DNA from: an uncultured Planctomycetota bacterium
GTDB lineage: Bacteria > Planctomycetota > Planctomycetia > Gemmatales > Gemmataceae
Length of the DNA: 64,000 bases
Assembly (NCBI GenBank): GCA_963849325.1
Contig: CAWKHF010000011.1
Location: forward strand, 94,457-158,456
Direction of reading: 5' to 3'
Shown: piece by piece, positions 1,226 through 23,260 of the stretch
How positions within the stretch are numbered: position 1 is the stretch's first letter
Layout: every line of letters starts with the position of its first letter
Notes under the pieces: model-generated
What the model was told of the DNA's origin: nothing
Seen by the model: the letters and a program-made list of their open reading frames with translations, nothing else
The model's database searches: none
Program-made: the position numbers and the translations under genes

Positions 1226-1554
1226 ACGGAGCCTCCACTCGGGGAACCGGGCTGTGTCCCTCCGGCGGGACTCCCCCTTCTTCGGCCCGCGAGATCCAAG
1301 CTGCGGGCGGCACAGCGACGCGGCAGATGATACGAGGTATCGCCTAAAAGGGATAGGATAGACCGACTCGCAACGTCGATGCAAGGGAAAAACGGGAGGC
1401 GGTCAGGCACGCCGTCGGCGGCAGCGGCAAATTGCTCTTTACAGCCCCCGTCGTTTGTGGCATAGGCTCTCCCTCTCACGGTTCACAGTCGGAAGGGAGT
1501 CGGCCAGATCGCTGGGGGGCGATCGGCCCAGGGGGATCGGCCGGGAGGGGAGCC

Positions 1555-2130: not shown

Positions 2131-2396
2131 CACGCCAAGGATGTTTGGTGCTGGCCCTGGCCCTGGCCGCTTCGGGCTGTTTCAGTCCGCCGACTCGCCT
2201 GGACGAGGAATCGCACAAGGCGCCGTCCTTGACGTCGCTGCCGCTGCCGCCGGCGATCGTCACGCCGGATGAAGTAACGGAGGCCAACGCCGCCGAAAAG
2301 GCCCAGGCGTTGGCCCGCGAACTCGATTACGCCGCCAACGATCACCCAGCGCCGCTGCCGCTGGCGACGTTAAAGGAAGGGCTGACGAAACCGTGA
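2127..2396 (+). CDS. Small putative lipoprotein
   Basis: Hydrophobic stretch and lipobox-like LALAASGC; translationally coupled to upstream gene. Confidence 0.7.
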   Translation: MTRQGCLVLALALAASGCFSPPTRLDEESHKAPSLTSLPLPPAIVTPDEVTEANAAEKAQALARELDYAANDHPAPLPLATLKEGLTKP

Positions 2397-2508
2397 AATC
2401 CGCCGCTGGCGGCTTGGCGCCAAGCCGTAAGCGGGGCGAAAACGAAGGGTGGGGGACGGCAACAGGGAGCCATGCTCCCCGTTGCTCGTTTTCCCACGGC
2501 ATCGTGGC

Positions 2509-3606
2509 TCAGGGCCAGTTGACGACATCGTTGGCGTCGCGGGTGATGAGGGCCTTGAGCGTGGCTTCCGGCGTGTTCGCCGGCAGACTACGAACCGAAC
2601 CATCGGCCAAAAGGACGTTGAAGCCGCTGCGAAAATGCGTGCTCAACCGAGGCGCGATGGGTTTGTTCGGGTCAAAGGCAATGTCGTCGGGCTTGGTCCA
2701 CGGCACCGCCTGGGCCGCCTCGACGATCAGGATGGTGTTCGATATGCCATCCTTGAACTCCCCCAGAGGCAGACCGCTTGTCTTCTCGAAGGCGGCGCCG
2801 TTGCCGACGAATACCTGATAGTGCGTGTGATCGGGCGGCGTCTGGTCGTCGTTGGGGAGCTGATAAACCTTTGGCATTCGCGTCAGCAGCTTGATGTTAT
2901 TGGGACCGTCCCACGGCTCATCGAGCTTGAACTGGTTGTAGAGGATCTGCTCCTCAACAAAAGGCAGGAGGGCAACGCGCCAACTCAGCCGAGGTTTCCT
3001 CGCCTTGGGAGGTTGCAGCGGATCGCCAATGGCCGACGGCGGGAAAGTGTTATAAGTGGCGTTGTAATTGTGCATCGCCAGCCCCATCTGCTTGAGGTTG
3101 TTCGCCGATTGCACGCGGACGACGGCCTCGCGTGCCTTCTGTACGGCTGGCACCAGTAGCAGCGTCGGTATCAAGCCGATGCAGGACAGGAGTGTGCCGG
3201 CGCAGGCGGTGCTAATCCCGGCGATGGCCAACCCCCGTCCGCCGAGGCGCTCGCGGCTGCGGCCGATGTCGCGCAGAGCGAGCAAACCGAGGATGAGGGC
3301 CGGGATTCCGGTCAGGATGTTGCAAAACAAGGAGCAGATGCCGAGGACGAGACTGGCCGTGGCCTTGCCGCTGGTGCCCGTTGGCGCGTCAGCGGTCGGT
3401 TCCTCCTCGAAATCGGGGGCCAGGGCGGGACGTGCCGGCCGACCGGCCGCCGCGGGCTGGATGTCCTCCTCGACCGCCTGGATGGCATCCGCGCCCACGG
3501 CTGGGACGGTCTGCTGTCGGCCGCAGACGGGGCAAGCGACCCGCTTGCCCGCGTTCTCCTCGCGCACTTGCAGTTGCTTGCCGCACTCACAGACGAAGCG
3601 AATCAT
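2509..3606 (-). CDS. Zn-ribbon + DUF4190-like TM + DUF1559 domain protein
   Basis: [73 protein letters not shown] (H-X9-DG-like). Confidence 0.9.
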
Positions 3607-3694
3607 GGTGGGCCTCGCAGGAACGGGTCGCCGTCGTCGCTCGAATCATGGACCAGTGTAACGGCTGAGAGGGCCCTGTCCAGGGGCCAGGCGG

Positions 3695-3724
3695 TTGACC
3701 GTCCCCCGGAATACATGCTATAAC
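3695..3724 (+). promoter_or_regulatory. Putative sigma70 promoter of the kinase gene
   Basis: TTGACC-18 nt-TATAAC with TGn extended -10. Confidence 0.55.
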
Positions 3725-3881
3725 AGTTGTCCGCGATTTCCTCCGCGCTCCCGGCGCGGCGGAGAGGAATGAAATCTTCGTAACAATCGACTTCGATTCC
3801 GGGTATTGGTGAACGCTTTCGCGGTTCCGTCGTCTAAGAAGTGGCGCCATGTACGAGCCGGGTCCGCCCCGAAAGGAGACC

Positions 3882-5260
3882 ATGAGTGTCCCGCAGCCCA
3901 TGGATCGAAGGACGTTTCTGGCCAACCTGCGCCAGAGTCAGCTGTTGACGAAGGCCCAGCTCGCCGAGGCGCTGCGCGATCTGCCCGCGACCAACCGCGG
4001 CCGGGCCGTCGCTCGCGCCCTGGTCGAGAAGGAGCTGCTGACGCGCTTCCAGGCCGAGCGTCTGCTGGCCGGTCGCAATACCGGCTTTCTGCTGGGACAA
4101 TATCGCATCCTCGACCAACTCGGCCGCGGCGGCATGGGCCGCGTCTTCAAGGCCGAGCACGTCACCATGAAACGCCTGGTCGCCCTCAAGGTGCTGGCCC
4201 CCGGCCTGCTCCAGTCCGAGCGCGCCCGCGAGTTGTTCTTGCGCGAGGTCCGCGCCATCGCTCAGCTCGTCCATCCCAACATCGTCACCGCCTTCGACGC
4301 CAGCCACGATGCCGGCTGCTATTACCTCGTCTTGGAATACGTGGACGGTCCCAACCTCGACCAGCTGGTGCGCAAGCAGGGGCCTCTGCCGATCGGCCTC
4401 GCCTGCGACTACGTCAAGCAGGTGGCCAACGGTCTGCAAGCCGCTCATGCCGTGGGCATGGTCCACCGTGACATCAAGCCGGCCAACGTCCTCGTGCAGC
4501 GCCGCGGTCTGCAAGAGCACTCGCCCGGCCTAATCAAGATCAGCGACTTCGGCCTGGCCCGGCTGCACTCTCCCGATGTCAGCGCCGACGCGCCCCGCCA
4601 CGCGGGCACCATCCTGACCAAGGAAAACACGGTCATGGGCACGCCCGATTATCTGTCGCCCGAGCAGGCCCGCGACCTGCATCGAACCGATATCCGCAGC
4701 GATCTCTACAGCCTGGGCTGCACCTTCTACTTTCTGCTGTCCGGCCGGGTGCCTTTCGCCGGCGGCACCGCCCTGGAGAAGTTGATCCGCCACAACACCG
4801 AGTCACCAATCCCTATCGGCGACCTGCGCCCCGACGTGCCGGCGCCGGTGGCCGAGATCGTCCGGCGTCTGCTGTCCAAGAAGCCCGACGACCGCTACCA
4901 GGCACCCCTGGACCTGGCCGCCGTGCTGGAGCCGTATGCCGTGAGTGGACCGACGCCGTGGGCGTCGTTGCCACCGCCGTCCCATCCTTTCCTCGACGCC
5001 GCCGCCACACCGGTGGGCGATGCCGCCGACGCACCGGGCAGCGTCCTGGAGGAGAGTTCGTCCGATCCTTTCTCCGCCCTGTCGAACACGGAGTCGCCGG
5101 ACCTGTCGGCCACCGTGGAAGATGAGTCGGAGGAAAGCCCGCTTCTTCGCCGCCGGCGCCTTCTCCGCGCACGGCGGACCGGGCGGTCCTCGTATGGTTT
5201 GTCATCGTTGCCGCTGCCCTGATCGGCGGCCTTGCCTTGCTGATGTCACTGATGAGTTGA
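3882..5260 (+). CDS. Ser/Thr protein kinase with C-terminal TM helix (frameshift ~5170)
   Basis: GRGGMGRV, VALK, LFLREVRA, HRDIKPAN, DFG, GTPDYLSPE, DLYSLG; AAAGGAG RBS. The alternate frame supplies TM VLVWFVIVAAALIGGLALLMSLMS*. Confidence 0.92.
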
Positions 5261-5262
5261 TC

Positions 5263-5321
5263 GTAGGTGCCGCGAGCCGAGCGGCACGGCGGAACCGTCC
5301 GGCTCGGCTCGCCGGACCTAC
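5263..5321. repeat. REP-like inverted repeat (GTAGGTGCCGCGAGCCGAGC family)
   Basis: GTAGG...CCTAC-bounded imperfect palindrome between convergent genes; second copy at 23322-23380. Confidence 0.7.
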
Positions 5322-7193
5322 CGAGAGACGTCCTGATCCAGGCCGCGCACGCGGCATTGCTCCTCGATGAGCGCCAGGAACAGCATCCCGAAGTTGCGCA
5401 GACGTTTATCGCCGACGCCGGGGACCAGGCGCAGGCGCTCCGGTGTCGAGGGGCGCACGCGAGCCAGCTCGCGCAGGGTGCTGTCGGTGAAGACGATGAA
5501 CGGCGACACTTGCCGGTCGGCGGCCAACTGTACGGCGCAGGCGCCGCAGCGCCTCGAACAATTCGCGGTCCACGCCCTCCCACGACGTCGTTTCGACCTT
5601 CGATTTCTCCGGCCGTTCGCCTTTTTTGCGGCGTGCCATCCGCACCAGTCGGATCTGCCGCTGGCCGCGCATCACTTCCCACGAGGCATCGTTGAGTTTC
5701 AGCACCGGATATTCGTCGCCGACCTGCAACAGCACGCCCTGGCCGATCATCTGATAGATCCAGTCGCGCACGTCCGGCTTGCTGTGGCCCTTGAGGAGAC
5801 CGAAAGTCGTCAGCTGATCGTGGCCGCGCTTGCGGACGTTCTCGGTGTTTTCGCCGCGTAGCACGGCGGTAACGTGGCCGATACCGAAGCCCTGTTTGAC
5901 GCGAGCCACGCACGACAGGATCTTTTGCGCCGCCACCAGCGCGTCGGGCACTTCCTCGGTGTCGCCCAGGCACAGGTCGCAGGCATTGCAGTACTCCGCC
6001 TCGTAGGGCTGGCCGAAATACTGTACCAGGGCGCGATGACGGCAGAGGGCGCCGCGACAGTAGCGGTCCATGTCGTCGAGATGCTTGAACACGCCCGGCA
6101 AGTGCGTCTCGTTGCCGGCTTCGCGGGCGGATTTCTCCAGCATCGAGCGGAAGGTGTAGGTATCGCCGCCGGAGTAGAGCAGCACGCACTCGGCCTCCAG
6201 ACCGTCGCGTCCAGCGCGGCCGGTCTCCTGCTGATAGTGCTCCAGCGATTTCGGCATGGCCGTGTGCAGCACGAAACGGACGTTGGAGCGATCGATCCCC
6301 ATGCCGAAGGCCACCGTGGCGACGATCACATCGACTTGCTCGGACGAGAACGCTTCCTGCGCCGCCTGCCGCTCCTCGCTGCTCATGCCGGCGTGATACG
6401 GCTTGGCCTTGACGCCCTTCTTTTGCAGAGCGGCGGCCAACTCATCCACGTCGCGGCGGCGCAGGCAGTAAACGATGCCGGCCTCGCCCTCGTGCCGCTC
6501 GAGCACTTCCAGCGTCTGCTTCAGCGTCTCATGGCGCGGCAACACCCGATAGGTGAGGTTCGGCCGATCGAAGTTGCCGACCAGCAGCACCGGGTCTTTC
6601 AGGGCGAGTTGGACGATGATGTCCTGACGCACCTGCTCGGTCGCCGTGGCCGTGTAGCCGTGGACGGCGGCCTTGGGGAAGAACTCGCGCAGGCGGCTGA
6701 GCTGGCGATACTCGGGGCGGAAATCGTGGCCCCAGTGGCTGATGCAGTGGGCCTCGTCGATGGCGAAGGCGTGGACGTCGATCTTTTGCAGGACGCGATA
6801 CAAATCGCTTTGCACCAGCCGTTCCGGCGACATGAACAGCAAGCGTACCTCGCCCTGGCGCACGTCCATCTCGTAGGCGAAGCGCTCGCCCGCTGACAAC
6901 GAGCTGTCAATCTGCGTCGCCGCGATACCGCAAGCTCGCAGACTATCGACCTGGTCCTTCATCAAGGCGATCAGCGGCGAGACGACGACGGTGGTGCCGC
7001 CGCGGAGGACGGCCGGCGCCTGGTAGCACAGCGATTTGCCGCCGCCGGTCGGCAGGACGACCAGCGAATCGCGGCCGTCGAGCACGGCCTGCATGGCCTG
7101 GTCCTGCAACGGCCGCAACGTGCGGAAACCCCAGTGACGGACGATGATCTCTTGCAGCTCCGCCAGGGACCAGGTTGAGTTTGGGGAAGACAT
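5318..7193 (-). CDS. recQ: ATP-dependent DNA helicase RecQ (frameshift ~5525 in HRDC domain)
   Basis: [47 protein letters not shown], Zn site [32 protein letters not shown]. Confidence 0.95.
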
Positions 7194-7274
7194 CGGCTGG
7201 GACTCCTGCAATCCCGTACATCATGCGCGATGAAGGAGGGATTGAGAAGCCCAGTCGTCCGCATTCGGTTCCGC

Positions 7275-8810
7275 TTATTTCTTCCGAAGTCGCAGGTAGA
7301 CGATGAGCACGTCCGCCTTGGGGTTTTCTTCGAGGAGTTCGGGCACCGTATTCCAGAGGCCGAAGGGTTTGGGTACTGCGCCTGGAGCAATCCTCTCCTG
7401 CCTTCGGTTGCGAATCACCCACAACATCGGCGTCTCCGTCGCGGAGCCAGCTCCACGAGAGAACGAACCACTGCTGCCCCCGTCGCTGAAGTCAAATAAT
7501 TCCTTCGGCACGTCGGCGCCCCCCGCACCCGTCATAAACCACTTGTGCCATCGGTTTCCACCGATTGCCAACTGCACTTGCATCCGGCAGTGTCCCTTCC
7601 GCGCCCCCGCCAGCGGAAGGTAATCCAGGTCCGCCGCGAGTAGAGCGACCTTCGCGCGACGGAATAGGCTCTTATCCTCGGACAGTTCCGTAAAGATCCT
7701 GCCGTTGATGTCCGGCAAGGCCCAATTCGTCTTCTGTTTCTTTCCGTCCTTGTACACGTCGATGTCCACGCCAAGGGCCGTGAGCGGTCCCTCCGGTCGT
7801 AGTTCGACCTCCCTCACCTCTTTGAAGATATGGAGCAGCGACGCCACATCCCCACCATCGTCCTCGGGGTGTGTGATTTTCATCGCCAGGGTTTCTTTCG
7901 CGGCAGGCTCGGCCGCCGGTTTCGGCTCCGCCGCCGGCTTTTCCTCCGCCGCCCGCATGGGGGCGAAGAAGGAGGCACTCAGCACGCCCAGCACGCCCAC
8001 CGTCGCCAGGAACGCCGTCAGGAGCTTCACTTTCGTCAGAAGCATCATTTGCAGTACCTCTTTCATGAGGAAGGCCGCCGGGGTCGTGACGGTTTGTCCC
8101 GCCGCGACCCGCAGGGCGTCGCCGGCCGTCGAAACAAGCAAAGAAGGCGATACCCAGGCGGATGCCGTCTCGCTCGACAGCGCCCCCGACAGCATCGCCG
8201 CCGAAATCGCCAGATGGTGCCGAGCCAGTCGCTTCGCCAGCATTTGCCGAGCCGTCGCCAACCGGCTGGACAGAGTACCCTCGGGCAGACCGAGCTGCCG
8301 CGCGACCTCCTGGCGCGATCGTCCTTCCAGATGGCACAGGACGATGGGCGTTCGATAGCGTTCCGGCAAGCGGCTCAGTTCGCGCTCCAGCAAGGGGCGC
8401 CAATCCTGCGGCTCGGCGGGCGGCACTTCGGCGGCTGTCGCCGCCTCCAAGGGCGCCTCCCGAGTGCGGCGCCGGGCGATGCTCTTGCGAGCTTGCAGGG
8501 CGGTACGATACGCCACGCCATACAGCCAGTTCCCTATCGCCTCGCCGTTGCGCAGAGTAGGGGGCTTGTGCGCCAGCACGAGAAAGACGGCCTGGAAGGC
8601 GTCCTCCGCATCCTGGACGTGGCCCAGCACTCGCCGGCATACGGCGAACACCATGCCGCCATGACGGCGCACCAGGGCCGCAAACGAGGCTTCATCCCGG
8701 CGAGCGACGAAGCAGGCCAGGAGCTGTCCATCCGTGGCAGCCCCCTCGGCGCCGGGCGGAAGCGCTCGGTGAAGGTGCGCGAGGACTTCTTTCAGTCGGC
8801 CGCGGAGCAT
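7275..8810 (-). CDS. ECF sigma factor with TM helix and C-terminal extension (planctomycete type)
   Basis: DGQLLACF..RDEASFAALVRRHG..DAEDAFQA..WLYGVA..LPERYRTPIVLCHLEG..GTLSSRL, then TM VKLLTAFLATVGVLGVLSASFF and ~230 aa extension. Confidence 0.9.
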   Translation of the reverse strand: MLRGRLKEVLAHLHRALPPGAEGAATDGQLLACFVARRDEASFAALVRRHGGMVFAVCRRVLGHVQDAEDAFQAVFLVLAHKPPTLRNGEAIGNWLYGVAYRTALQARKSIARRRTREAPLEAATAAEVPPAEPQDWRPLLERELSRLPERYRTPIVLCHLEGRSRQEVARQLGLPEGTLSSRLATARQMLAKRLARHHLAISAAMLSGALSSETASAWVSPSLLVSTAGDALRVAAGQTVTTPAAFLMKEVLQMMLLTKVKLLTAFLATVGVLGVLSASFFAPMRAAEEKPAAEPKPAAEPAAKETLAMKITHPEDDGGDVASLLHIFKEVREVELRPEGPLTALGVDIDVYKDGKKQKTNWALPDINGRIFTELSEDKSLFRRAKVALLAADLDYLPLAGARKGHCRMQVQLAIGGNRWHKWFMTGAGGADVPKELFDFSDGGSSGSFSRGAGSATETPMLWVIRNRRQERIAPGAVPKPFGLWNTVPELLEENPKADVLIVYLRLRKK

Positions 8811-8972: not shown

Positions 8973-9512
8973 TTACTTTTTGTCGTTGGCAGGTTTGCCC
9001 GCTTGTTCTGGCTTCTTGTCCTTGTCCGGTTTCTCGAATTTCGTGTCCGTCGCCCCGGAGTCAGACGGCGGCAGAGAACTGCGTACTCCAATGACGTAGC
9101 CGACCATGAGGGCGCCGAAGATGAGCAGGAACCACAGCAGACTGTTGAGCAAACCCGTCGTCGCGTCGCCGTCCGGGTTCCAGTTGGCCATCCAGCGGCG
9201 AAAGCGCGTCTGCTTGCGCAGCTTCTGGAGCCAGCGACGGCCCGGCGCGGTCTGATCGAACTGGCGCACGGCCGTGGCCACCTTGCCGACCTGCCGCCGT
9301 GCCGTGGCGTTGTCCGGATCGACTTCCAGCACGGCCAGGTATGCCCACACGGCCTCGCCCAGTTCGCCGGCGCGGGTCAATGCCTCCGCCTGAGACAGCC
9401 CCTCGCGAAGGTCATCGACGTAGTGGACCAGCAGCGACACATCCGTGCGGCAGTTGAGGCACTCCTTCTCCAGCCCGCGCAGCTTTTTCTTGCACATCGG
9501 GCACGTCAGCAT
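8973..9512 (-). CDS. Zn-ribbon / TPR-like / TM protein
   Basis: MLTCPMC..ECLNC; AEALTRAGELGEAVWAYLAVLEVDPDNATA (TPR-like); TM SLLWFLLIFGALMVGYVIGV. Confidence 0.8.
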   Translation of the reverse strand: MLTCPMCKKKLRGLEKECLNCRTDVSLLVHYVDDLREGLSQAEALTRAGELGEAVWAYLAVLEVDPDNATARRQVGKVATAVRQFDQTAPGRRWLQKLRKQTRFRRWMANWNPDGDATTGLLNSLLWFLLIFGALMVGYVIGVRSSLPPSDSGATDTKFEKPDKDKKPEQAGKPANDKK

Positions 9513-9537
9513 GGGTGGCGTCCTTGAGTGTCCATCC

Positions 9538-9588
9538 GAGCCGCGACCGTTAGGGAGCGGAGACACCGCTCGCTAACGCTCGCGGCTC
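9538..9588. repeat. REP-like palindrome (GAGCCGCGACCGTTAGGGAGCGG family)
   Basis: Imperfect 23-bp inverted repeat; related copies at 15218-15269, ~40697 and ~40915-40957. Confidence 0.75.
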
Positions 9589-9602: not shown

Positions 9603-11341
9603 TCACAGCAAATAGGCGTAATTGAGCAAGCGATCGTTGAGCGTGGCGCTGGCGTCTTCCATCTTCTTGCGATCGCCCGAACCCATCGCCTGGCGCACGA
9701 TCCGGCACAGTTCCTCCAACTCCTTGCGATCTTCCGGGTTGTCGATGCGCGGGATGACGTCCTGCTCCGTCTTCTTGAGCACCTCAATGGCGTCCTTGTA
9801 CTCCTGCGTGCTCTCCAACTCCAGCGTGCGATTGACCAGCTCTTCGTTGATGCGCTTCAGCTTGATGAGCTGCGAAGCGTCCATCTGATCCTCGCCGGCC
9901 TGCTGGATGGCGAAGCGCTTTTTCTGGCCGGCGTAGGGATCGTGGATTTGCACGGTCAGAATGCCGTCGTCGCCGTACTCGAACGACACGTCGAGTCCGC
10001 CGTCGCGTTGCGGCCGCGGCGGCTTGAACTCCCAGGGGATTTCCGCCAGCTTGACGTTCTCCGGCGAATCCGGGTTGTCGTACAGGTCGCCTTCGTAGAC
10101 GCTGATGAGCACGCGGTCGGCGGGGTCGGCCACCGGATAATACATCTTGCTGAACGAACACGGAATGTCCGAGCCGCGCTTGATGATCGGATCGAGAAAG
10201 ACGCGATTGGTGCGCTGATCGACCGGGTTGGCGCACAGCGAATGCTCCAGCTTGACGCTGTAGGCGTAATTGTCCAGGCCGGGCGCCCCTGCAGGATGGC
10301 CGACACGATGGCGGCGCCCTGGGCGACGCACGTCATCGGATCGACGCGATCGAACCCCTCCGGCTCCTTGCCGGCCAGTTTTTCCGCGACGTAACGACGG
10401 ACCAGGGGAATCTTGCTGGTGCCGCCGACGAGCAGCACGCGATCGATGTCGCGCGGCCGCAGCTTGGCCAGCTTCATCGCCTCGTCGATGGCCGTGCCCG
10501 ACTTGATGACCAGCGGCATGATGAGACGCTCGAACTCGCCTCGGCTAAGTTCCTCTTCCAGGCTCAGGTGTCGCTCCGGCACCAGCTCGGCCTTGCGAGC
10601 GACGGCCATCTGCTCCGCGGACAGGTCGATCTTGGCCCGCTCGACGGCGAGCATGAACTGTTGCCTGTATGGCGAATTGAGGATGTCGAAGCCGGTCTTG
10701 TCGTGGAAGCGCTCGGCCAGCACCTTGGCGAGAATGGCGTCGAGGTCGTCGCCGCCGAGCTTGCCGATACCCTTGCTGGCGACTTCCTCGAAGATGCCGT
10801 GATGGATCTTGAGGACCGTCACGTCGAGCGTGCCGCCGCCGAAGTCGTAGACCAGCACGGTTTGATCGTCCTGGGCATTGAGTCCATAGCAGATGGCGGC
10901 GGCGGTCGGTTCGTTGATGAGCGTCAATACCTGAAGACCGGCGGCGCCGGCGCATAGCTTCGTGGCGTGGCGCGCCAGACCCTTGGAGTTGGCCGGAATG
11001 GTCACGACGGCCTTGGTGAAGCTCTCGCCCAGGACCGACTCGGCGTCTTTCTTGAGCAGGCTGAAGAGCATGACGGCGATCTGCTCGGTGCGCAGGTTCT
11101 GGCCGACCAGCGGCACGCGCTCCGGCGTGCCGAGGATGCGCTTGATGGAGCGAATCGAGCGCTGCTCGTCGAAGTTTTCCTTGGCTTCCTGACCGAAGGC
11201 GAGGGTGCCGTCGCGGCGCAGCGTGACGATGGAGGGCGTCCACTTCAGCCCCTCGTGATTGGGCACCACCTCGGCCTGACCGTACTGGAAGTTGGCCACC
11301 ACCGAATTGCTGGTCCCGAAGTCGATGCCGATGTAGGGCAT
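9603..11341 (-). CDS. Hsp70-family chaperone, atypical DnaK paralogue (frameshift ~10290)
   Basis: GIDFGTSNS, SIKRILG, AVVTIPA, INEPTAAA, YDFGGGTLDV, LGGDDLD, LVGGTSKIP, VAQGAA; SBD-like ISVYEGD..VSFEYGDDGILTV; helical lid. Confidence 0.92.
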
Positions 11342-11359
11342 GGAAGCTACCTCATGAAG

Positions 11360-11576
11360 AAAAACCACGAATCACACGAATAAGAAGCTGTAACTTTTTG
11401 GCGAGCGGGGGGCGTAAGCCCCCTGTTTTTCGCCGTCAACAGGGGGCTTACGCCCCCCGCTCGCCTATTTGGGTAGTGCCTCTAAGACAAATAACCGTGC
11501 CACCGGCGCCTTGCCCACTTCTTATTCTTTTTCTCTTCTTCTTTATTCGTGTGATTCGTGTGATTCGTGGTTTTTT
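11360..11576. repeat. Nested inverted repeats between grpE and hsp70
   Basis: Outer arms ACCACGAATCACACGAATAA / TTATTCGTGTGATTCGTG..GTGGT; inner perfect 28-bp IR at 11400-11427 / 11438-11465. Confidence 0.8.
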
Positions 11577-11583
11577 GTCTTTC

Positions 11584-12189
11584 TTATTCGGAAACGATGA
11601 CCTTGGGCCGGCGCAGGACGAATTCGGGTTGCTGGCTGGCGTAGCCGCGCTCGATCTGTTCGGCGACGAGCAGCGGTCCCATGCCCTCGACGCGCTTGCT
11701 GCCGACGCGCTCGTGGATGGCCGGGTTATACGCGGCGCTGATGACGGCGTCATACGGCTGAATACCGTGCCGCAGCAGGGCGGCGTCCACCTTGCGCGAC
11801 TCGACCTCGACCGCTTCGATCCAGCGCTTCACCGCCTCCAGGTCATCCAGCGACGGGCGGGCGGCGACGATGGCCCGCAAATCGTGAGCGGTTTCGATTA
11901 ACTCGTTGAGCAGGGCCAGGCTGACGCGCTTCTCGCCGTGCGTCTCCTGCCGCAGCTGTTGGTAGGCGCGCTGCGTGTCGGCCGCGAAGCTGTTGAAGCT
12001 CGTCTTCAGCTCGTCGCGGACCTTGTTGAGCGTCTGCTCCAGAGAGCGCAGCTGGCGCTTGTCGTACTCGCGCAGGGCGATGACTTCCTCGCACAGCTTG
12101 TACATCGTGGAGGAGCCGAGCGTATCGAGATCGCGGGAGGTCCCCGGTTCGGAGTTGCCGGGCACGCCCTGCAAAAAATCAGCGCTCAT
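11584..12189 (-). CDS. grpE: GrpE-like nucleotide exchange factor
   Basis: Coiled-coil N-half; LLNELIETAHDL; LLRHGIQPYD..AYNPAIHERV..VAEQIERGY..VLRRPKVIVS matches the GrpE C-terminus; adjacent to hsp70. Confidence 0.85.
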   Translation of the reverse strand: MSADFLQGVPGNSEPGTSRDLDTLGSSTMYKLCEEVIALREYDKRQLRSLEQTLNKVRDELKTSFNSFAADTQRAYQQLRQETHGEKRVSLALLNELIETAHDLRAIVAARPSLDDLEAVKRWIEAVEVESRKVDAALLRHGIQPYDAVISAAYNPAIHERVGSKRVEGMGPLLVAEQIERGYASQQPEFVLRRPKVIVSE

Positions 12190-12199
12190 TTCGGTAGTC

Positions 12200-12720
12200 C
12201 TAGTTCGGAATTCGGACTTCGAGTTCAATGGCCCAGGGATCCAGCGGTTGTTGTACGAGACGTTCGAGCAGCAGCGGCACGGCCGGCACCTCTTCGGGCA
12301 CCTTGGGCACGACCAGGGCGGCACGGACGGCGTTGACGTTCGGGCACTTCGGCGGAGGGCCGGTAGTCGGCCAGCGCCTTCTCGCTGTCCTGCGGCTGCC
12401 ACAGGCGACCGGCCTGGCCGTCTTCCACGCCGTAGCGCCGCGAACTGCGCCAGCACGCCGTCGCTGGTGTCGGCGTTGAGGCTGGCGGCGTCGGCCCGGA
12501 TGCGCCGCTCGGTATCGTGCAGGACCTCGCGGGCCCAGTTGATGTCCTCCAGCGGGACCTTGGATTGTCCCTTCCGCGCCCACTTCAGACGGTCGGCCCA
12601 GTGGGCGTCGATGGCCTTCTGGTCCGCCGCCTTGTCGAGACCGAGCAGCAGAAACGGCCCCACCTGCTCGCGCGGCAGCGTGGCCAACTCCAGCACAACG
12701 GGTTCCGGACTTCGACCCAT
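12200..12720 (-). CDS. J-domain-like protein lacking HPD (frameshifts ~12445, ~12340)
   Basis: GPFLLLGLDKAADQKAIDAHWADRLKWAR..LEDINWAREVLHDTERR aligns by eye to J-domain helices I-IV; directly upstream of grpE. Confidence 0.6.
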
Positions 12721-12733
12721 AATGTCCTCTCAT

Positions 12734-12854
12734 TTCACCGCAGAGGACGCAGAGAGCGCAGAGAGAAGACAGACAAATACCTTGCTCCGTCTTCGATTCT
12801 TTCAGGTTTCTCTCCTTTTCTTCTCTTTGCGCTCTCTGCGTCCTCTGCGGTGAA
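12734..12854. repeat. Long inverted repeat (TTCACCGCAGAGGACGCAGAGAGCGCAGAG family)
   Basis: ~35-bp arms with one mismatch. Confidence 0.8.
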
Positions 12855-12862
12855 TCTTTATT

Positions 12863-14477
12863 TTACGCGCCCATCGAGCGGCACGCTTCCATCTTTTTAT
12901 CGATATGCTCGGCCAGGTCACGCACGATGCGGCGATGTTCGTCGTTGCTGACCAGCGGCAGGCATTTGCCGGTGATACGGCGGAGCTTCTGAAACTCGCG
13001 GAGCAGGTCGCGCATCACCTCGCGCACCGCCGACCAGTTAATCTGGTAATTGGGCAGGTTGCGCACCTGATCGATGACCTTGCTCATCTGGTCGGTCAGT
13101 TGATCGCATAGGTTGCCCATCAGCGGAATGACGTTGCCGACCATGCTGATCGCCCGCTCCTCGACGCGGGTGTCGTTGGGGTAGCGCTTGAGGATGCGGT
13201 CGATGTCGGACAGCAGTTTTTCGATGTCGTTGAGTCCCTTGACCTCGATGAGGTCGAGTTCGTACAGCTCGTACTGCGGTTCGCCGGGCCGCAAGCGTCG
13301 CAGCTGCTTCCAGGGTGCGGCGGGCGTCCTGCGGCCGCTTGGACTGATTATACAGGTGGAAGAGGCGTTCGAGCGTGTCCGGGTCGTTGGGCCGCAGATG
13401 GGCGGTGCGCTGGACGTAGCTGAGGGCGCTGGACCATTTCTCTTTCTCGCCGTAGCGCGACGCGAGCCGGCCCAGGCTCTCGTAGGCCAGGTGCTCGATG
13501 TACTTCGGGATGTCCGGCGGGGCCGGCACGCCATCGTCCAGCAGGTCGAAATAGCGGTTCCAGTACGGATCGGCCTGAGCCAGTTCGCCCTTGAATTCGT
13601 AGATGAGGGCCAGGTTCTGGTGCAGGCGGGCATCGTTGGGGGCCAGTTTGATCGCCGCGGCGAAGTGCTTGATGGCGTCATCGAATTCGTGCGTCATGCC
13701 GGCGCAGCAGCCGAGCAGGTTGAGCAGGGCGACTTGCGTGGCTCGGCTGCCGCTCCGTTCGCGGGCCAGCGGACGCAGCAGCAGCTCGGCGTCGGTCCAG
13801 GCGCAGCGATCGATTAGCTCCTTGGCCTTGACGAGCACCGCCTCCAGGTACGCCTCGCGCACCGCCACGCTGCGCGGCCGGGCCTCGGTCAAGGTCTTCA
13901 GCAGGACATGCACGGTGTCGAGCTGGCCGAGGCTGCGAACGACCTGGAGCAGGCGCTGCTCATCGTCGGAGGTCAGCTCGGCCAGGAGCGGCACGTCCGG
14001 CGGCGCGCCGTTCGCCTGGCGGCACGCCTGCAACAACGCCTGCAAGACCAGCAGGAAACGCCGTTCCTCCCGCGTCTCGCCGGGACGATGGGCCAGCAGT
14101 TCGATGGCGTTGGGGATGAGGGCGAGACAGTCCTCGACCTTGCCGAGCGTGAGGCGCGTCAGCAGCAGGTTGTGACAGATTTCGTAGGAACCGGGGTCCA
14201 TCTGCCCGGCGCGGGCGAACTCGTCCTCGGCCTGGGCCAGCTGATTCTCTTGCAGCGACAGCAGGCCCATTTGCAGGACGACGTTGGCGTCGGGCCGCTG
14301 GATCTTGCGCAGGGCGTTGCGGGCCTCGGTGAGCTTGCCCTGCCGTTTGTGGGCCAGGGCCAGCATGTATAGCACGTTGGCGTCCTGGCAGCCGGACTGG
14401 ACGGCACGTTCGAGGACCTGAGCCGCCACCTCGTAGGGCGACAGGATTGGCTCCGCAATGGGGATTACTTCGGACAC
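12863..14477 (-). CDS. TPR-repeat protein with C-terminal helical domain (frameshift ~13310)
   Basis: TPR units LYMLALAHKRQGKLTEARNAL and AIKHFAAAIKLAPNDARLHQNLA; GTG start after GGAGAG; ORFs 13038..14531 and 12863..13681 joined. Confidence 0.85.
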
Positions 14478-14487
14478 AAGGCTCTCC

Positions 14488-14546
14488 AGTTCTGAGTTCT
14501 GAGTAACAGAAGCACGTCGATTGTTTTTCACTCAGAACTCAGAACT
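14488..14546. repeat. Heptamer-built inverted repeat
   Basis: AGTTCTGAGTTCTGAGT / ACTCAGAACTCAGAACT (17-bp arms) at the TPR-TPR junction. Confidence 0.7.
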
Positions 14547-17327
14547 TACTGAATACAGCAAGTCGCTGCCCGGCCCGCACCAGGGCGAGGGTCATCAACG
14601 GCCCCAGGCGGCGATCGCGCAGGCCGAGCTTGCCGGCCTCGCGGAAGCGGTCGGCCGCCTGCTCGAAGCGACCATTCTCGTAGGCCAATAGCCCCGACAG
14701 CAGCACCGTCTGCCGCAACGGCTCGTCGAATTGCCACTCGCCCCGCCTGGGAGGATCGACGCTATTCCACCACTTGATGGCCTCGTCGTAGGCGCCGCGG
14801 TCGAAGCTCAAACGGCCCAGCATGGCGCGGGCGTAGACCGCCGACGGACTTTTCTCGACCGCGGCCACCTTCAGCAACGCTTGCTGAGCGGCAGCAACAT
14901 TGTTCTGGTGCAAATAGGCCCAGGCCATCAAGAACTGACTTTCCACGGCCAGCGCCTCGTCCTCGGCGGCCCGCTGGCTCAATTCGAGGACGGTCCCGTA
15001 ATTGTTCGCGGCCAGGTGGCAGACGGCGCCGAGGTAGTGGAAGCGCGGATCGCGCACCTCGGGGCGATTCATCGCCGGCGCCTGCGCCGCCAGGCCGGCT
15101 CGATCGCCCAGGACCGAGCGCACCGCCGCCAGACACCACAAGGCATCGATGTGGTTCGGATCGTCGCGCAGGCATGTCTCCAGCAAGGTCAACGAGGATG
15201 CCAGCGAGGAATGATCCGAGCCGCGACCGTTCGGGAGCGATTGCCCCCGCTCGCTCACGCTCGCAGCTCGGTTGTTGCCCAAGGTCTCGCGCAAGGCCAG
15301 CCGAGCGCCCAGGAAGGCGATGGCGGCACGGAGCGGGCCGCGGCGTCAGCCCCAGGGCGCGGTCGATGGCCTTGGCACGACGGTCGGCGTTGCCGCGCTC
15401 CTGCTCGATGATGGCCTGGCGCACCAGCGGCCAATGATCGGTCGGGGCCAGGCGGTGCCAGCCGGTGAGGAGGGCCACGGCCCCATCCATGTCGCCACGA
15501 CGGTAGTTCAGGCACGCCAGCCGATCGTGTCCGGCGATGCTCGACGGGTCCAGGCGGAGCAGCACCTCGACGCAGACTGCGCCGGCTCCTGGTGCCCCGA
15601 CTCCTCCTGCGCGGCGCGAGCGCTCCAGCAGGAACGATTCGCCGTGGGCCGCGTAACTGCCGCCGAGCACGCCAGGGTACTGTCCCGGCGCGCTCAGCGG
15701 CGCTGCGCTCCAGGTAGGCGTACTCGGCGTCGTCGAAGCTCCACTGCTGCTGCTCGAAGTAGGCACGGGCAGCGCCGGACTCGGCGAAGGTGCGGGAGAA
15801 CAGGTCGAGATCACGGTCACTGCTGGAGCCGTGGACGGTGGCCGCCCGCACGTACAGGAAGGCGTGCCGCGGCCGGACGGCGTCGGGGAACGTGCGCGGC
15901 CAGGTGAGCGTAGGCGTCGGCGGCCTGCGGGTCGGTGGCGTGAACCGAGGCGAGCACGTCGCACAACTGGAGCTGCTCGTCCTTGCCCAGCGTCATGTTC
16001 AGCCGCCGGGCCTCGGCGTGGACGGCGCGATGAGGCCGGCCCACTCGGCGTTGTCGAAGACGGGATAGCGGGCCAGCAGGCGGATGGCCCAAGCGACGTT
16101 GCGCGGCTTGTCCTCGGGGTTGGTTGGCTTGCCCAGGGCGCCGCACAGGCCGAGATAGCCGGCCGTGAAGGGATCCTTGGGTTCTTCTTGTTCCAGGGCG
16201 ATGCGCAGGTGCTTGTAAGCCTGGTCGTAGCGGCCGCAGCGGGCCAGGGACAGGCCCAGACCGCGCAGCAGCGGCACCGTGGGAGGACTGTCTTGCAGAA
16301 GCTTGGCGAAAAGGTCGGCCGCTTCCGGGAAGTCGCCGTGACGGTAATGCGCCTGCGCCATGGCGAACCGCCCCTGCCGCAGAATGACGGTCAGGTCCGG
16401 ACCGAGGACGGGGCAGACGTAGGGATACTTGTTGGCCAAGCGGCGAACGTAGGAGTGTGCTTCGGGAAAGGCTTCGACCCAGGCGCGCTCCGGCCGGGCC
16501 GTCCACAGCCCGAAGCCGCGCGGCCCCAGGGCGCGTTGCAGGGCGCGCAGGGCGAGTCCGCTATCGCCGCCCGCCGCGACGAGGGAGGCACCCATCTGGC
16601 AGGTCACGAACGGACAGCTCGCCTCGACGCGGTTGGCCTCAGCGAGATAACGCAAACTCTCCTGCGCCTTGCCTTGCCGATAGAGCAGCACACCGAGATA
16701 GAACGCCGGATCGAGATAGTGTTTGCCGGCCTGTTCGTGCGCCGTCGCCAGGGCGGCCATCGCCTCCTCGATCTTTTCCTGGCGGACCAGGCACAACCCT
16801 TTCCAGAAGGACGCTTCCGGGCACGGCGGCCGCACGGCGAAGATGCGTTCCAGCAGGTGCAGGACGGCTTGCGTGTCTTCCCCCTCACCCCTTCCCCTCT
16901 CCCCCCCAGGGGGGAGAGGGGTTAGGGGTGAGGGGGTGGCGGCGAACAGGCGCCGCGCCTCGGCCAGCATCGCCTCGACGATGCGCGTGCGCTGTTCGTC
17001 CTGGTCCAGTCCGAGGCGAGCGCCTGCTTCGAGAGCGTGTCGCAGAGCTTCCTCGAAGTTTTTTTCCTTGAGCATCTGCTCGGCGCCGCGCTGGTGGCAC
17101 TCACCGGCGACGACGCGGAGACGATCTTGCCAGACGGGCGGCAGCCGCGGCTCGGCCAGCAGGGCCGTCACGATGTCCAGCGCGGGCTGCCAGTCGCCTT
17201 GTTCGAGCAGGCGCTGAGCGTGGCGGAAGGCGCGATGGCGGCGCGGCCCGCGCCCCAGCAGCAACCACAGGCACAGCGCCAGCGAGAGCACGAAGACGGC
17301 GACAAGGAGGAGGATCTTAACAGTCAC
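14539..17327 (-). CDS. Large membrane-anchored TPR-repeat protein (several frameshifts ~15350-16030)
   Basis: N-terminal TM MTVKILLLVAVFVLSLALCLWLLLG; many TPRs (FYLGVLLYRQGKAQESLRYL, AMAQAHYRHGDFPEAADLF, LSGLLAYENGRFEQAADRF) across consecutive frames. Confidence 0.8.
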
Positions 17328-17384
17328 AGCGGTCGTTTCCTTCGCGGTCCAATCCGCTCGGCGTGCAGGGGCGATCTCTCCTCA

Positions 17385-20078: not shown

Positions 20079-22772
20079 TCAGAACGACCCTTCCAATAAC
20101 CCGGCGTCATCGCCCGGTGTTAACCGTCGATTCTGAAGCAGGTTCGCCACCTTCTCGACCTCCGTCCCCAGCCGGTTCGTGTCGCGCAGCACGGCCAGCG
20201 GCTCCGTCTTGATGCGCTGACTCAGTCCCCGCGCCTGGGCGGCGATTTCGGTCAGGCGCGTCTCCAGGTCGGCGCGTTGACGTTCGCGCACCTGCTTCCA
20301 CACGGAGGACAGGTAGGCGCGGAAGCGTTCGAGTTCGGCGCGGGCCTCTTCCTCGGGCGGACGGCTCGGTCGCGGCGGACGCGGCAGCGTGTCGCGCAAC
20401 AGCTGCGTCAGATAGCCGCCGTACTTCTCCAGGTTCTCGTGACACTCGCGGTACAGGGCTTGGTTGTGCTCCTCGTAAGCCTGCTCGGCGTAGCGCTCCT
20501 GGGCGCGGATGTGCTCGCTCAGTTCGTCGCGGTCGCGGCCGGTCTTGTCGGCGACCTCGGCGGCCAGATCGAGGCAATGATGCACCAGCTGGACGAAGCG
20601 CGGCCAGGGTGGATCGAGTGTCTGACCGTGGCTCGTCTCCAACTGCTGCAAGAGCTCGCGCAGCTCGGCCATGCGCTGGATGGCCTTCGGCTCGTCGTCG
20701 TAGCGCAGCGCCTCGAAGAGATCCTGACGGATTTGCTGCGCCCTGGCCCGCAGGCGCGTGCGGAAGCTGCCGCTGAACTGCGGTAACAGATCGTCAATTT
20801 GCTTCTGCACCTCGTCGATGTCGGCGCGGGTCGGCCGTCGCGGCGGCGGCGGCGCCTCGATGGTCGCCGTCTCGCAACGCTCGTAGGAATTGGACAGGCG
20901 GAGGCGCACGCGCACCTCAATGACGTGCTTGACATCGATGGCGAACTCGACCTCGACCGGCGAGCCGACCGGCAGGCTCGGATCGAGGTCTTCGATCACC
21001 ATCTGTTTGACGACGCGGTTCTCCTCGAAGATGGGCACGACGATGCGGCCGGCCTGGTCGTGTGTGCGGCAGATGCACTGAAACACACCCGGCAGTGTCG
21101 CGCCGACGGGCGCCACCACCTGCTTGACGCGCTGGCCGCCGCGCGACAGCACTTCGATTTGCAGCGGCTTGGTGATGAGCTGCGTCGGCAGTACGGCCTG
21201 GCCCAGATGCCGCGCCTCGCTCTGATGCCGCACGACTACGACGACGCGGGCCGTCTCCTGTCCGGAGCCGTCGCAAACCGCGAACTCCAGAGCGTTGTCC
21301 GTCTCCGCTTGCAGCTCCAGCTCGTGGGCGAACGTGCCGCGCTCGTCGAGAAATGCCTCCTCCGTCAGCCCCGTCGCCAGCGCCCGGATGCGCACCGAGC
21401 CGCCCTCCAGCGTGGCCTCCGTCGATTCCAGTCGCACAACGCCGGTTGCCTGGTAAGCAAGGTCACGGGTGTTGACCGGACTGGTCAGGTGCAGTCCGAT
21501 GCCGGGGAAGAGATACTGTGTCCCGTGGGTCGCGGCCCGGAGGGCGGCGCCGTAAGCGACGCACAGGTCCGGCTCGTGCAGCAGCGGGTCGAGACAGCGG
21601 ACGTGCTCGGGCAGTTCCGGGTTGCAGAAGGCGGCGCGGACGGTGTCGCGGACCAGGGGGACGCGGCTGGAGCCGCCGACCAGAACGACGTAATCGATGT
21701 CCGACAGGCCCAATCCCGCTCGCTCCCGAGCGCGGGCCAAGGCGTCGCGGCAGCAATCGATGGTTCGGTCCACCTTATCGCGGATGAGACGTTGAAAGAC
21801 GCTTCGCTCAACGCTCGTCTCCAGCGTGATGCCCCGGCCGTCGGCGTCGCGGACCAGGTCGGGCAGATAGCGCTCGACGCGCTCGGCATCCGTCAAGGCG
21901 ATCTTGATGCTCTCGGCGGCCTGCACCAGCCCGACGAAGTTCCCCGCGCCGGCCGGCGTCGAGAGGTCGAAGAGCGCCGAGAGCGTCTCGGCCGGGACCG
22001 GCGCTGTTCGCTCGCCTTCCCGACCCGCGAACCACGAGCTATTCTCCACGAGATGCGTGGCCAGCAGGCGGTCGAAGTCGTCGCCGCCGAGAAAGGGATC
22101 GCCGCTGACCGACAGCACTTCGTAGTCGTCGAAGCGGCGGCGGATGATCGATACGTCAAAGGTGCCACCACCGAGGTCGTAGACGAGGTAAGTGGCGTCG
22201 CCGTGGCCGCCGATCCAGGAGTAATAGATGGCGGCGGCGGTCGGCTCGTGCAGCAGTTCGACCACCTCGAAGCCGGCCCGTTCGCCGGCCTGCCGGGTCG
22301 CCTCGATCTGATTGTGATTGAAGTACGCCGGCATTGTCAGGATGGCCGAGTCGATCAGCCGGCGCGGATCGTTCAGCGTGCGGGCCAGCATGTCGCGTAG
22401 AAGGCCCAGGATGCACGCCGACACCTCCGGCGGCGTCAGCCGCTGCGGCCCCAGGGCAAACTCGCGCGGCAGACCCATGAAGCGTTTGACCGAGGCCAGC
22501 GGCAGCTGGGTGGAGGGTGCTTCTTCTCCCTCCACTCTCCACCCTCCACCCTTCACCCGTTGGGCGGCGCGGCCGGCGACGAGGCGGTCATGCTTCGGGT
22601 GATAGCCGACCAGCGAAGGGAACGTGCGATGGCCGTGTTCGTCCTGTCCGGTGAGAATCGTGCTGTCGGTGGGATCGAGCAGGGCGATGACGCTGTTGGT
22701 GGTGCCCAGGTCGATGCCGACCGTTTTGCGGATGCGGAGAGGCGATGAGGAGAGAGGAGAGGTGTGCGGCAT
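20079..22772 (-). CDS. Long atypical Hsp70-family protein (~897 aa)
   Basis: GIDLGTTNS, SVKRFMG, MPAYFN, HEPTAAA, YDLGGGTFDVS, LGGDDFD, LVGGSSRVP, VAYGAA; then beta-rich insert, SBD-like region and long helical tail. Confidence 0.92.
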   Translation of the reverse strand: MPHTSPLSSSPLRIRKTVGIDLGTTNSVIALLDPTDSTILTGQDEHGHRTFPSLVGYHPKHDRLVAGRAAQRVKGGGWRVEGEEAPSTQLPLASVKRFMGLPREFALGPQRLTPPEVSACILGLLRDMLARTLNDPRRLIDSAILTMPAYFNHNQIEATRQAGERAGFEVVELLHEPTAAAIYYSWIGGHGDATYLVYDLGGGTFDVSIIRRRFDDYEVLSVSGDPFLGGDDFDRLLATHLVENSSWFAGREGERTAPVPAETLSALFDLSTPAGAGNFVGLVQAAESIKIALTDAERVERYLPDLVRDADGRGITLETSVERSVFQRLIRDKVDRTIDCCRDALARARERAGLGLSDIDYVVLVGGSSRVPLVRDTVRAAFCNPELPEHVRCLDPLLHEPDLCVAYGAALRAATHGTQYLFPGIGLHLTSPVNTRDLAYQATGVVRLESTEATLEGGSVRIRALATGLTEEAFLDERGTFAHELELQAETDNALEFAVCDGSGQETARVVVVVRHQSEARHLGQAVLPTQLITKPLQIEVLSRGGQRVKQVVAPVGATLPGVFQCICRTHDQAGRIVVPIFEENRVVKQMVIEDLDPSLPVGSPVEVEFAIDVKHVIEVRVRLRLSNSYERCETATIEAPPPPRRPTRADIDEVQKQIDDLLPQFSGSFRTRLRARAQQIRQDLFEALRYDDEPKAIQRMAELRELLQQLETSHGQTLDPPWPRFVQLVHHCLDLAAEVADKTGRDRDELSEHIRAQERYAEQAYEEHNQALYRECHENLEKYGGYLTQLLRDTLPRPPRPSRPPEEEARAELERFRAYLSSVWKQVRERQRADLETRLTEIAAQARGLSQRIKTEPLAVLRDTNRLGTEVEKVANLLQNRRLTPGDDAGLLEGSF

Positions 22773-23260
22773 GGGTTGTCCCGCTCGTCCTTCTTCCGCT
22801 GGGGAAAAAGGAAACCCGTGGCTCGGCCGGATCGGTAGGTAGCTTATCGGGCCCGCTGAGGTGTGGAACAAATCCCGGCTTGCAAGCAAGCCGCAACGCT
22901 CAGCACCGTATCAGCCGAAATCCAGCCAGGCAACGGGTTTCGCGGAAACCATGTGGCGTTTCGACTGGGACACCTCCTGTTTACCTCGGCCAGGAGTCGG
23001 CTTGCGGGAGACGGGATCGGGGAACACGAAATCGTTCTTTTTGGGGGAGGGCGTTGGCCACCCAAATCCGTATGTGCCGAAATCCCCTCGAGCAAACCTC
23101 CTCGTTGTTGCCCGCCCTGCGGCCCAGAGCCAGCAGAGCTTCCCGACCCACAGGCCGCGAGAAGAGCAGATGAGACGGCCTACGGGCCAGAATCTTGAAG
23201 TGCGCCTTCTAGTGCTCAACGCCTCGCGGCGTCACTGGGTGAAGTAGTCTACAACCTCAC

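Follow-up and report, generated by a model that had tools for sequence, protein, structure and literature searches.

The classical trigger of ATP hydrolysis by Hsp70 chaperones is the histidine-proline-aspartate (HPD) motif of their J-domain partners. According to the 2021 review by Mayer, in which three prokaryotic Hsp70 types are distinguished (DnaK, HscA, and HscC), H33 of DnaJ bonds the backbone of L391 in the DnaK linker, P34 packs on P419, D35 bonds both R167 and Q378, and K48 pairs with D477 (PMC8215388; numbering here and below follows the Escherichia coli DnaJ and DnaK sequences). Specialized Hsp70s with partners of their own have also been reported, e.g., the divergent HscC of E. coli, whose J proteins DjlB and DjlC are described as carrying HPE (PMC13254874) and which is said not to use GrpE (PMC8215388), and the GrpS-SglK system of Myxococcus xanthus, for which the cited accounts give a grpE-like gene co-transcribed with that of the DnaK paralogue SglK (MxDnaK2), a function in the cell envelope or in motility, and an unknown J partner (10.64898/2026.08.28.747804, PMC11019930). 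Proteins with a recognizable J domain in which HPD is non-conservatively replaced are referred to as type IV or pseudo-J proteins; the examples given, i.e., Pam16/Tim16, DnaJB13, and the type IV J-domain proteins of Plasmodium, are eukaryotic, and the relevance of the class is regarded as unresolved in a 2026 review (PMC13254874). The current study deals with a bacterial candidate for this class, a J-like protein encoded beside a grpE-like gene in a 64,000-nucleotide (nt) stretch of DNA from an uncultured planctomycete of the family Gemmataceae (GenBank assembly GCA_963849325.1, contig CAWKHF010000011.1, positions 94,457 to 158,456 of the forward strand), which was analyzed at its full length and is referred to as the window. 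The central observation is that HPD and the Hsp70 residues that would receive it are both missing from one and the same gene cluster.

The J-like gene, its landmarks, and its putative partner genes lie in the window as follows:

12200..12720, minus strand: gene of the J-like (pseudo-J) protein, with ATG at 12720 and stop codon at 12200-12202, ~170 amino acids (aa) across two frame breaks
12481..12672, minus strand: J-domain-like four-helix domain, residues 17-80, with helices at residues 17-26, 34-49, 57-68, and 70-79
12553..12582, minus strand: end of helix II and helix II-III loop, W47-A48-R49-K50-G-Q-S-K-V-P56, the HPD site in canonical J domains
12233..12247, minus strand: P-L-D-P-W motif near the C-terminus, the other hallmark of the family, from alignment A6
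11584..12189, minus strand: GrpE-like exchange-factor gene, 10 nt downstream of the J-like stop codon, PF01025 at E 6.6e-13 and 49.1 bits (cut-off, 25.8)
9603..11368, minus strand: specialized Hsp70 of the T167/AYSVK-linker type, with one frame break at ~10280-10330 and PF00012 in two pieces (E 4e-84)

In a preliminary description of this locus, a J-domain-like protein without HPD had been deduced from a peptide that corresponds to residues 22-73 of the minus-strand frame opening at the ATG at 12720 and whose loop, KGQSKVP, occupies residues 50-56 (window 12553-12573). The lack of the motif is shared by the homologues: HPD occurs in 0/19 family genes, 0/16 distant representatives, and 0/27 rows of A6, the alignment and profile of the broader family with its 27 members. 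W47, A48, and R49 at the end of helix II are invariant in 18/18 family members and are followed by a basic residue and then glycine, and the pattern A-(R/K/Q)-(R/K)-G is found in most distant members. In the hhalign register, a 9-residue deletion spans P34-E42 of E. coli DnaJ, with H33 opposite a variable residue, F47 opposite an invariant leucine, and K48 opposite a glutamate (E58 of the family). The alignments thereby show a deletion of the HPD loop, with a short basic W-A-R-K-G loop in its place. An indel artefact can be dismissed because the loop lies before the first frame break, which was located after residue 94, just as the preliminary description had argued. For 45 within-genus pairs with a dS of ~1, the ratio of nonsynonymous to synonymous substitution rates (dN/dS) averaged 0.09 over residues 1-94 and was lower still in the J-like core (0.07) and at residues 44-60 around the loop (0.035), so that selection maintains the HPD-less state. 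As judged from the homologues, the absence of HPD is ancestral and maintained in the family.

The Hsp70 encoded downstream differs from DnaK at the very contacts listed above. The window copy carries a frame break and is 94-95% identical to the intact protein of the relative G009. Thirteen intact module Hsp70s of Gemmataceae were compared with E. coli DnaK, the DnaK of the same genome, and the Hsp70 of a sister module, and HscC was also aligned. In all 13 proteins, R167 is replaced by T, Q378 by V (by A in a further copy, from a metagenome-assembled genome [MAG] labeled Bacillota), the linker VLLLD at 389-393 by AYSVK, Y145/N147/D148 by N/K/G, and V218 by E; the catalytic residues D8, K70, E171, D194, T199, and D201 are kept throughout, and so are N170 and T173. 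Of the DnaK contact residues named in the review, P419 alone is the same in all module copies; an acidic residue (E) occupies position 477 in 12/13 proteins, but its partner residue in the J-like protein is reversed to glutamate. R167 and Q378 are retained, along with a hydrophobic linker whose last residue is D, in the genome's DnaK, the sister-module Hsp70, and E. coli HscC. Identities of ~30% to DnaK and 27-29% to HscC, and scores far under the NCBIfam cut-offs for DnaK and HscA, set the module Hsp70 apart. At the level of aligned residues, it has kept its catalytic equipment and lost the R167, Q378, and VLLLD linker with which DnaK receives HPD, and it evidently does not carry the R167/Q378/VLLLD-type linker signature of a canonical DnaK-DnaJ-GrpE system.

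A control for this two-sided loss is found in the same genome, i.e., a paralogue of the whole module that matches it in gene order and in the kinds of proteins encoded:

contig C10, ~436-6200 of the extracted locus: paralogous module in the order tetratricopeptide repeat (TPR) protein (~850 aa), 97-aa J protein, GrpE-like protein (~300 aa), Hsp70 (~600 aa), zinc ribbon

The module is intact in the relatives G004 (locus positions 1824-7756) and G008. In contrast to the window module, its J protein passes PF00226 and bears S-P-E-H-H-P-D in two relatives and HPE, which is described as the one tolerated variant of HPD (PMC13254874), in the source genome, and its Hsp70 keeps the HPD-receiving R167 and Q378 together with an SVLVD linker. 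Because the sister module is intact on both sides, it serves as an internal control: the loss of HPD and the loss of its receptor residues coincide, on the present comparison, in the window module and are both absent from the sister module.

The assignment to the J fold does not rely on any single score; what carries it is that the predicted fold and the profile comparisons in both directions agree. The AlphaFold2 model of window residues 1-95, built with a 30-row alignment, has a mean predicted local distance difference test value (pLDDT) of 81.9 and a predicted template modeling score of 0.66; the model of a full-length homologue is of moderate quality (pLDDT 66.9), with the four-helix domain as its confident portion. 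In Foldseek, the top rows throughout were J domains or J-domain-containing entries by title, with probabilities of up to 1.00 and a best E value of 0.048. VIA-align, which is independent of Foldseek, compared the model with 48,161 chains in its wide setting and gave a best Z score of 8.8 (root mean square deviation, 2.9 over 66 residues); 22 chains reached a Z score of 5 or more, nearly all of them J domains by title, and the next were at 4.2 or below. In a further VIA-align list, J domains reached a Z score of up to 7.9. At the profile level, hhalign paired the family with 26 canonical HPD-bearing J domains of relatives at 89.7% probability (E 1.9e-6, 52 columns). In the other direction, the A6 profile matched J domains in 20/22 genomes of a Bacillota class at per-genome E values of ~1e-6 to 1e-7, and 12/12 of the matches examined there were classical J domains carrying HPD. 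The N-terminal domain of the J-like protein thus descends from a J domain. With a J fold predicted and HPD missing from every homologue examined, neither of the two outcomes named as refuting in the preliminary description was obtained, and its claim of a J-domain-like protein without HPD adjoining grpE stands.

Compared with the canonical J domain (PF00226; DnaJ, CbpA), the protein shares the four-helix fold, in which helices II and III form a long antiparallel hairpin, and recognizable landmarks of helices I, III, and IV: it opens with (P/Y)(F/Y)xxLG and closes with D..(K/R)R..D. Its gene lies beside GrpE-type and Hsp70-type genes. It differs by the missing HPD, by a loop that is 9 residues shorter in the hhalign register, and by its score, which falls short of the PF00226 gathering threshold (27.8 bits), so that a genome scan with PF00226 misses the gene. 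In contrast to DnaJ, it has no G/F region, no zinc-finger domain, and no C-terminal substrate-binding domains, but a tail of ~90 aa ending in DPW. This motif is retained in distant members; P162 and W163 are invariant in all 27 diverse members of A6, and D161 is nearly so. The Gemmataceae proteins have, in addition, a conserved N-terminal extension, P-V-V-L-E-L-A-x-L-P-R-E (residues 7-20), ahead of the J-like domain, which is absent in distant members and in the Bacillota-labeled copy and is of low confidence in the models.

With the N-terminal 95 aa of the window protein as a query, matches were obtained in 21/24 other genomes of the same family, the Gemmataceae, and in 2/15 genomes of the sister family, the latter weak (E 0.002-0.004). 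Intact genes of the relatives encode 166-181 aa, and 18 full-length genes and one cut by a contig end were extracted. A profile search of 1.84 billion proteins yielded 160 representative clusters at an E value of 0.001 or below, 43 of them at 1e-30 or below, whereas a phylum-wide sample of 401 genomes contained two with a match, i.e., the source genome and one weak match (E 3.5e-4); the family was not found in the remaining Planctomycetota of this sample. Related loci were also sought with a single distant representative, P0243, and none came up. A word-indexed search returned 1435 proteins at an E value of 0.001 or below, and the 120 of them that were listed had no Pfam domain and, where they were named at all, the name "hypothetical protein." PADLOC and NCBIfam had no family for the protein, and there was no sign of membership in a known defense system. 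The look-alike clusters in the ESM Atlas, which serve as leads only, include clusters from Myxococcota (score, 0.93) and one with PF00226 in 45% of its members (score, 0.89). The J-like proteins are therefore a narrow, unannotated family, and because homologues are widespread in the Gemmataceae, the clusters number 160, and dN/dS is low, the open reading frame (ORF) is no product of chance.

Around the J-like gene, the window contains further genes of the cluster:

8973..9566, minus strand: zinc-ribbon/TPR-like protein with a hydrophobic segment near the C-terminus, the last module gene, from the ORF and homology to relatives
12863..14531, minus strand: TPR protein directly upstream of the J-like gene, homologue of a 556-aa protein of G009, one frame break at ~13310
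14539..17360, minus strand: large TPR protein, homologue of a 936-aa protein of G009, with frame breaks

In G009, the co-directional order is two WD40 genes, the 936-aa and 556-aa TPR genes, the J-like, GrpE-like, and Hsp70 genes, a 181-aa zinc-ribbon gene, and recQ. In the loci of 16 relatives, the J-like gene has a GrpE-like gene behind it in 15 cases and a TPR gene of the 556-aa type ahead of it in 14, the Hsp70 gene then follows in 13, and the zinc-ribbon gene comes after the latter in 11 of the 13 Hsp70-bearing loci. The GrpE-like gene, which overlaps the J-like gene in G009 (by 17 nt) and in the Bacillota-labeled locus, scores 48.1 and 36.3 bits, respectively, with PF01025. Gene order and homology delimit a conserved five-gene module of TPR protein, J-like protein, GrpE-like protein, Hsp70, and zinc-ribbon/TPR membrane protein. 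No canonical J-domain gene was found in the module of G009 or of the Bacillota-labeled locus, and the source genome as a whole has four PF00226 matches at an E value of 0.1 or below, none of them on the contig of the window. In G012, G016, and G017, no module Hsp70 was found in the 3-4 kb that follow the J-like and GrpE-like genes, and in G016 the downstream GrpE-like gene is also missing, with a 764-aa ORF in its place.

The same order recurs on the Bacillota-labeled MAG contig (positions 3-4971), with a TPR gene, a 151-aa J-like protein with DPW, a GrpE-like gene, a 563-aa Hsp70, and a zinc-ribbon/TPR/membrane protein. This Hsp70 is 45-47% identical to those of the Gemmataceae and has T167, A378, N-K-G, and AYSVK. 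The J-like family is present in just 1/22 genomes of that Bacillota class, a distribution that suggests lateral spread of the whole module; two metagenome records are near-identical to this locus and offer no independent support.

A second non-canonical Hsp70 is encoded in the same string of genes, i.e., a 936-aa frame at window positions 20079-22889 (minus strand) in which PF00012 (E 1.5e-63, covering profile positions 2-237 and beyond) marks an Hsp70 nucleotide-binding domain in the N-terminal part, whereas the long remainder has no Pfam match. G023 has a comparable gene upstream of its TPR genes.

With respect to the known systems, the J-like protein fits the definition of type IV or pseudo-J proteins (PMC13254874), with KGQSKVP after W-A-R, but the published examples are eukaryotic and this one is bacterial. 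Pam16 acts in a heterodimer whose other half is a true J domain, whereas no such partner was seen with PF00226 in the window module or on its contig. A further difference is that the cognate Hsp70 can be identified from the operon and has itself lost HPD-receiving residues. HscC offers a bacterial analogy in several respects: it is likewise a divergent specialized Hsp70 with J proteins of its own; as described for HscC (PMC8215388), the module Hsp70 is also without DnaK residues ~76-101, and the first loop of its substrate-binding domain likewise contains an insertion; and the E. coli hscC locus (674000-688000) combines djlB and djlC with the Sel1-type repeat proteins ybeQ and ybeT, a thematic parallel to the TPR-rich module. 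However, HscC retains R167, Q378, and a VILTD linker and is only 27-29% identical to the window Hsp70, its J proteins have HPE where the window protein has no HPD, and the reported independence from GrpE stands against a GrpE-like protein encoded in the window module. By these features, the module is evidently not an HscC-type Hsp70 system. For M. xanthus, no J-like gene is reported in the GrpS-SglK operon by the sources cited, and the MxDnaK2 linker is reported to be almost identical to that of MxDnaK1 (PMC11019930), in contrast to AYSVK, although the two were compared by description only. SglK/GrpS as members of the same subfamily were set aside on account of this canonical-type linker. GAP1-N2 GTPase conflict systems, for which Hsp70, GrpE, and DnaJ/TPR fusions are described (PMC7159879), were likewise considered and set aside, as no GTPase was seen among the module genes scanned. 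A limited open-access keyword search turned up no account of the two-sided loss of HPD and receptor, of the module itself, or of any HPD-less J-like protein from bacteria with such an Hsp70, but surveys of bacterial J proteins may already list HPD-less families.

Overall, the J-like protein is best read as a conserved pseudo-J (type IV) protein that serves as a dedicated subunit of a five-gene specialized Hsp70 module. It would still dock on the module Hsp70 and link it, perhaps via the C-terminal DPW motif, to the TPR and membrane components or to their clients. It would thus tether or regulate the Hsp70 instead of triggering ATP hydrolysis in the classical way through HPD, while the GrpE-like protein and the substrate would then set the ATPase cycle. 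The predicted complex of the G009 Hsp70, the J-like protein, and ATP falls into the class of "weak support," with a median of 0.38 (0.37, 0.38, and 0.60) compared to 0.00 for the best of three controls, a partner pLDDT of at least 62, and an agreement of the runs in at least 95% of contacts. The mark applied was reached by 116/157 solved complexes and 2/215 mismatched pairs, and values of up to 0.60 at this mark were seen for only 18 of the 157 solved complexes and for both passing mismatches; since solved J-Hsp70 complexes exist, the pass may reflect likeness to them. The prediction is a small push toward the view that the J-like protein may bind the module Hsp70. A probability of roughly one in two is assigned to the proposal of a pseudo-J subunit with this tethering or regulatory role. 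The preliminary description had offered a co-chaperone, an adaptor, or an inhibitor of J-Hsp70 coupling. Its starting point, a J-like protein without HPD beside grpE, holds, and the choice among these functions is one we can only infer. The inhibitor is the least favored option because the cluster contains no canonical J gene and the operon Hsp70 has lost the HPD-receiving residues; this loss therefore points to a dedicated rewired pair and not to interference with a normal J-Hsp70 pair.

Several observations weigh against the tether or regulator. The steps of docking, tethering, and second-site binding through DPW are inferred, purely so in the case of DPW; the complex prediction amounts to weak support with no interface reported; and the loss of HPD contacts on both sides would equally fit a pair that has ceased to communicate. 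As to the fold, Foldseek with the models of J-like proteins gave no row at an E value of 0.001 or below, VIA-align Z scores of 7-9, the range of the best values obtained here, can be common for small helical models, a Pfam scan of the 95 window aa at an E value of 1 or below returned no family, PF00226 was seen in only 4/18 homologues (best E 0.037), and the sequence-profile search of the PDB gave no significant row (E 0.81 for 3r0a and 1.1 for the J domain 6rzy). As to the module, the Hsp70 gene is not directly downstream in 3/16 loci (G012, G016, and G017), and the cross-phylum case consists of one lineage with three near-identical records and the taxonomic label of a MAG.

The coincidence of changes on both partners could also be read in the opposite sense, namely, that the J-like protein is a fully functional J-protein with a rewired trigger, in which the W-A-R-K-G loop and the surface of T167, V378, and AYSVK have co-evolved for HPD-independent stimulation of the ATPase. 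Both partners show reciprocal changes that are the same in every copy, the loop is under very strong purifying selection, and the Hsp70 has kept its catalytic residues as well as N170 and T173; an exchange factor retained in the operon makes most sense if nucleotide cycling is still driven, and the function of HPE with the divergent HscC indicates some plasticity (PMC13254874). However, the entire loop is deleted here and not substituted, and the hydrophobic linker with D393, which is central to DnaK allostery, is changed too. A rewired trigger is considered a serious but rather unlikely alternative. All known HPD contacts are, on the other hand, gone on both sides, and the J fold might have been recycled for a task without Hsp70 contact, e.g., as an assembly factor or as a partner of the TPR or GrpE-like protein. 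The tightest gene links are indeed those to the TPR gene (14/16) and the GrpE-like gene (15/16), above that to Hsp70 (13/16), and pseudo-J proteins for which an Hsp70 interaction is given as unknown exist, e.g., DnaJB13 (PMC13254874). Against such a recycled fold speak the basic character at the end of helix II, which is kept across distant members, the complex prediction, which is, if weakly, above all three controls, and the five-gene order, which retains Hsp70 across phyla, and we regard it as improbable. Even less probable is a regulator of the Pam16 kind that pairs with a true J-domain protein encoded elsewhere and modulates its action on an Hsp70. Among HPD-less J-like proteins, Pam16 is the best known, and it dimerizes stably with the J domain of Pam18 (PMC13254874), and the Tim14-Tim16 entry 2guz is among the structural matches (Z 5.6-6.4), but the four PF00226 matches of the genome at an E value of 0.1 or below all lie off the contig of the window, a second J-type gene is found neither in the module of G009 nor in that of the Bacillota-labeled locus, and the module Hsp70 is without the residues that a true J domain would use.

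A further question is whether the gene is decaying in this particular genome. The J-like frame is lost after residue 94 and again ~33 codons further on, and only a third frame reads the true C-terminus with P-L-D-P-W, followed by 10 residues and the stop codon at 12200-12202. In tblastn with the intact homologue of G009, the gene is spanned by three frame pieces (q1-94, q94-128, and q122-167), and DNA alignment located the two breaks:

12438..12439, minus strand: first frame break, 2 nt deleted relative to three relatives
12340, minus strand: second frame break, insertion of 1 nt (A) compared with three relatives

Two breaks ~100 nt apart could indicate a pseudogene with real frameshifts. However, the reading frames of rpoB and rpoC in the same assembly (C1:334967-343005) are broken into at least four and at least three pieces, respectively, the estimated completeness is just 84.7% for 8.16 Mb in 14 contigs, nearly every gene around the J-like gene is broken once or twice and yet 74-95% identical to intact relatives, and the correct frames of the J-like gene are free of premature stops. 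Decay is therefore very improbable. A search for sequencing runs listed 14, with shares of 0.05-0.08 and no RNA data set among them. Because rpoB and rpoC are split as well, the two breaks are most likely sequencing or assembly errors, and the gene is treated as intact in the organism; with so many indel errors in the assembly, frame breaks in the window are not evidence of pseudogenes absent read support.

The TPR gene and the J-like gene are separated by 142 nt, within which lies a 36-nt inverted repeat (window 12734-12854) whose arms are 97% complementary and 49 nt apart. A 28-nt pattern from one arm occurs nine times in the genome with up to three mismatches, compared to no occurrence for the reversed control, and eight of these occurrences form four pairs on contigs C11, C1, C8, and C4, with the single one on C12. 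The repeat looks like a small dispersed palindromic element.

Taken as a whole, the locus may represent a hitherto undescribed prokaryotic Hsp70 machine beside DnaK, HscA, and HscC, in which the J-Hsp70 interface has been rebuilt on both partners and an HPD-less subunit with W-A-R-K-G and DPW, a T167/AYSVK Hsp70, and a GrpE of its own are arranged on a TPR/zinc-ribbon membrane scaffold, with the module as a whole ancient or mobile enough to occur in Planctomycetota and a Bacillota-labeled lineage. This broader proposal is a tentative one, possible but short of probable; if true, it would add a distinct Hsp70 subtype to the three prokaryotic types of the 2021 review (PMC8215388). The module offers a simple bacterial test case for pseudo-J proteins, as the gene is under strong purifying selection and its operon names the likely Hsp70 and exchange factor. 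The residues missing from this Hsp70 are precisely those by which HPD is read, and the normal J-Hsp70 pair of the sister module provides a built-in control. If the pair still communicates, the module would reveal a second way of coupling a J fold to Hsp70; if it does not, it would show a J domain becoming a pure scaffold.

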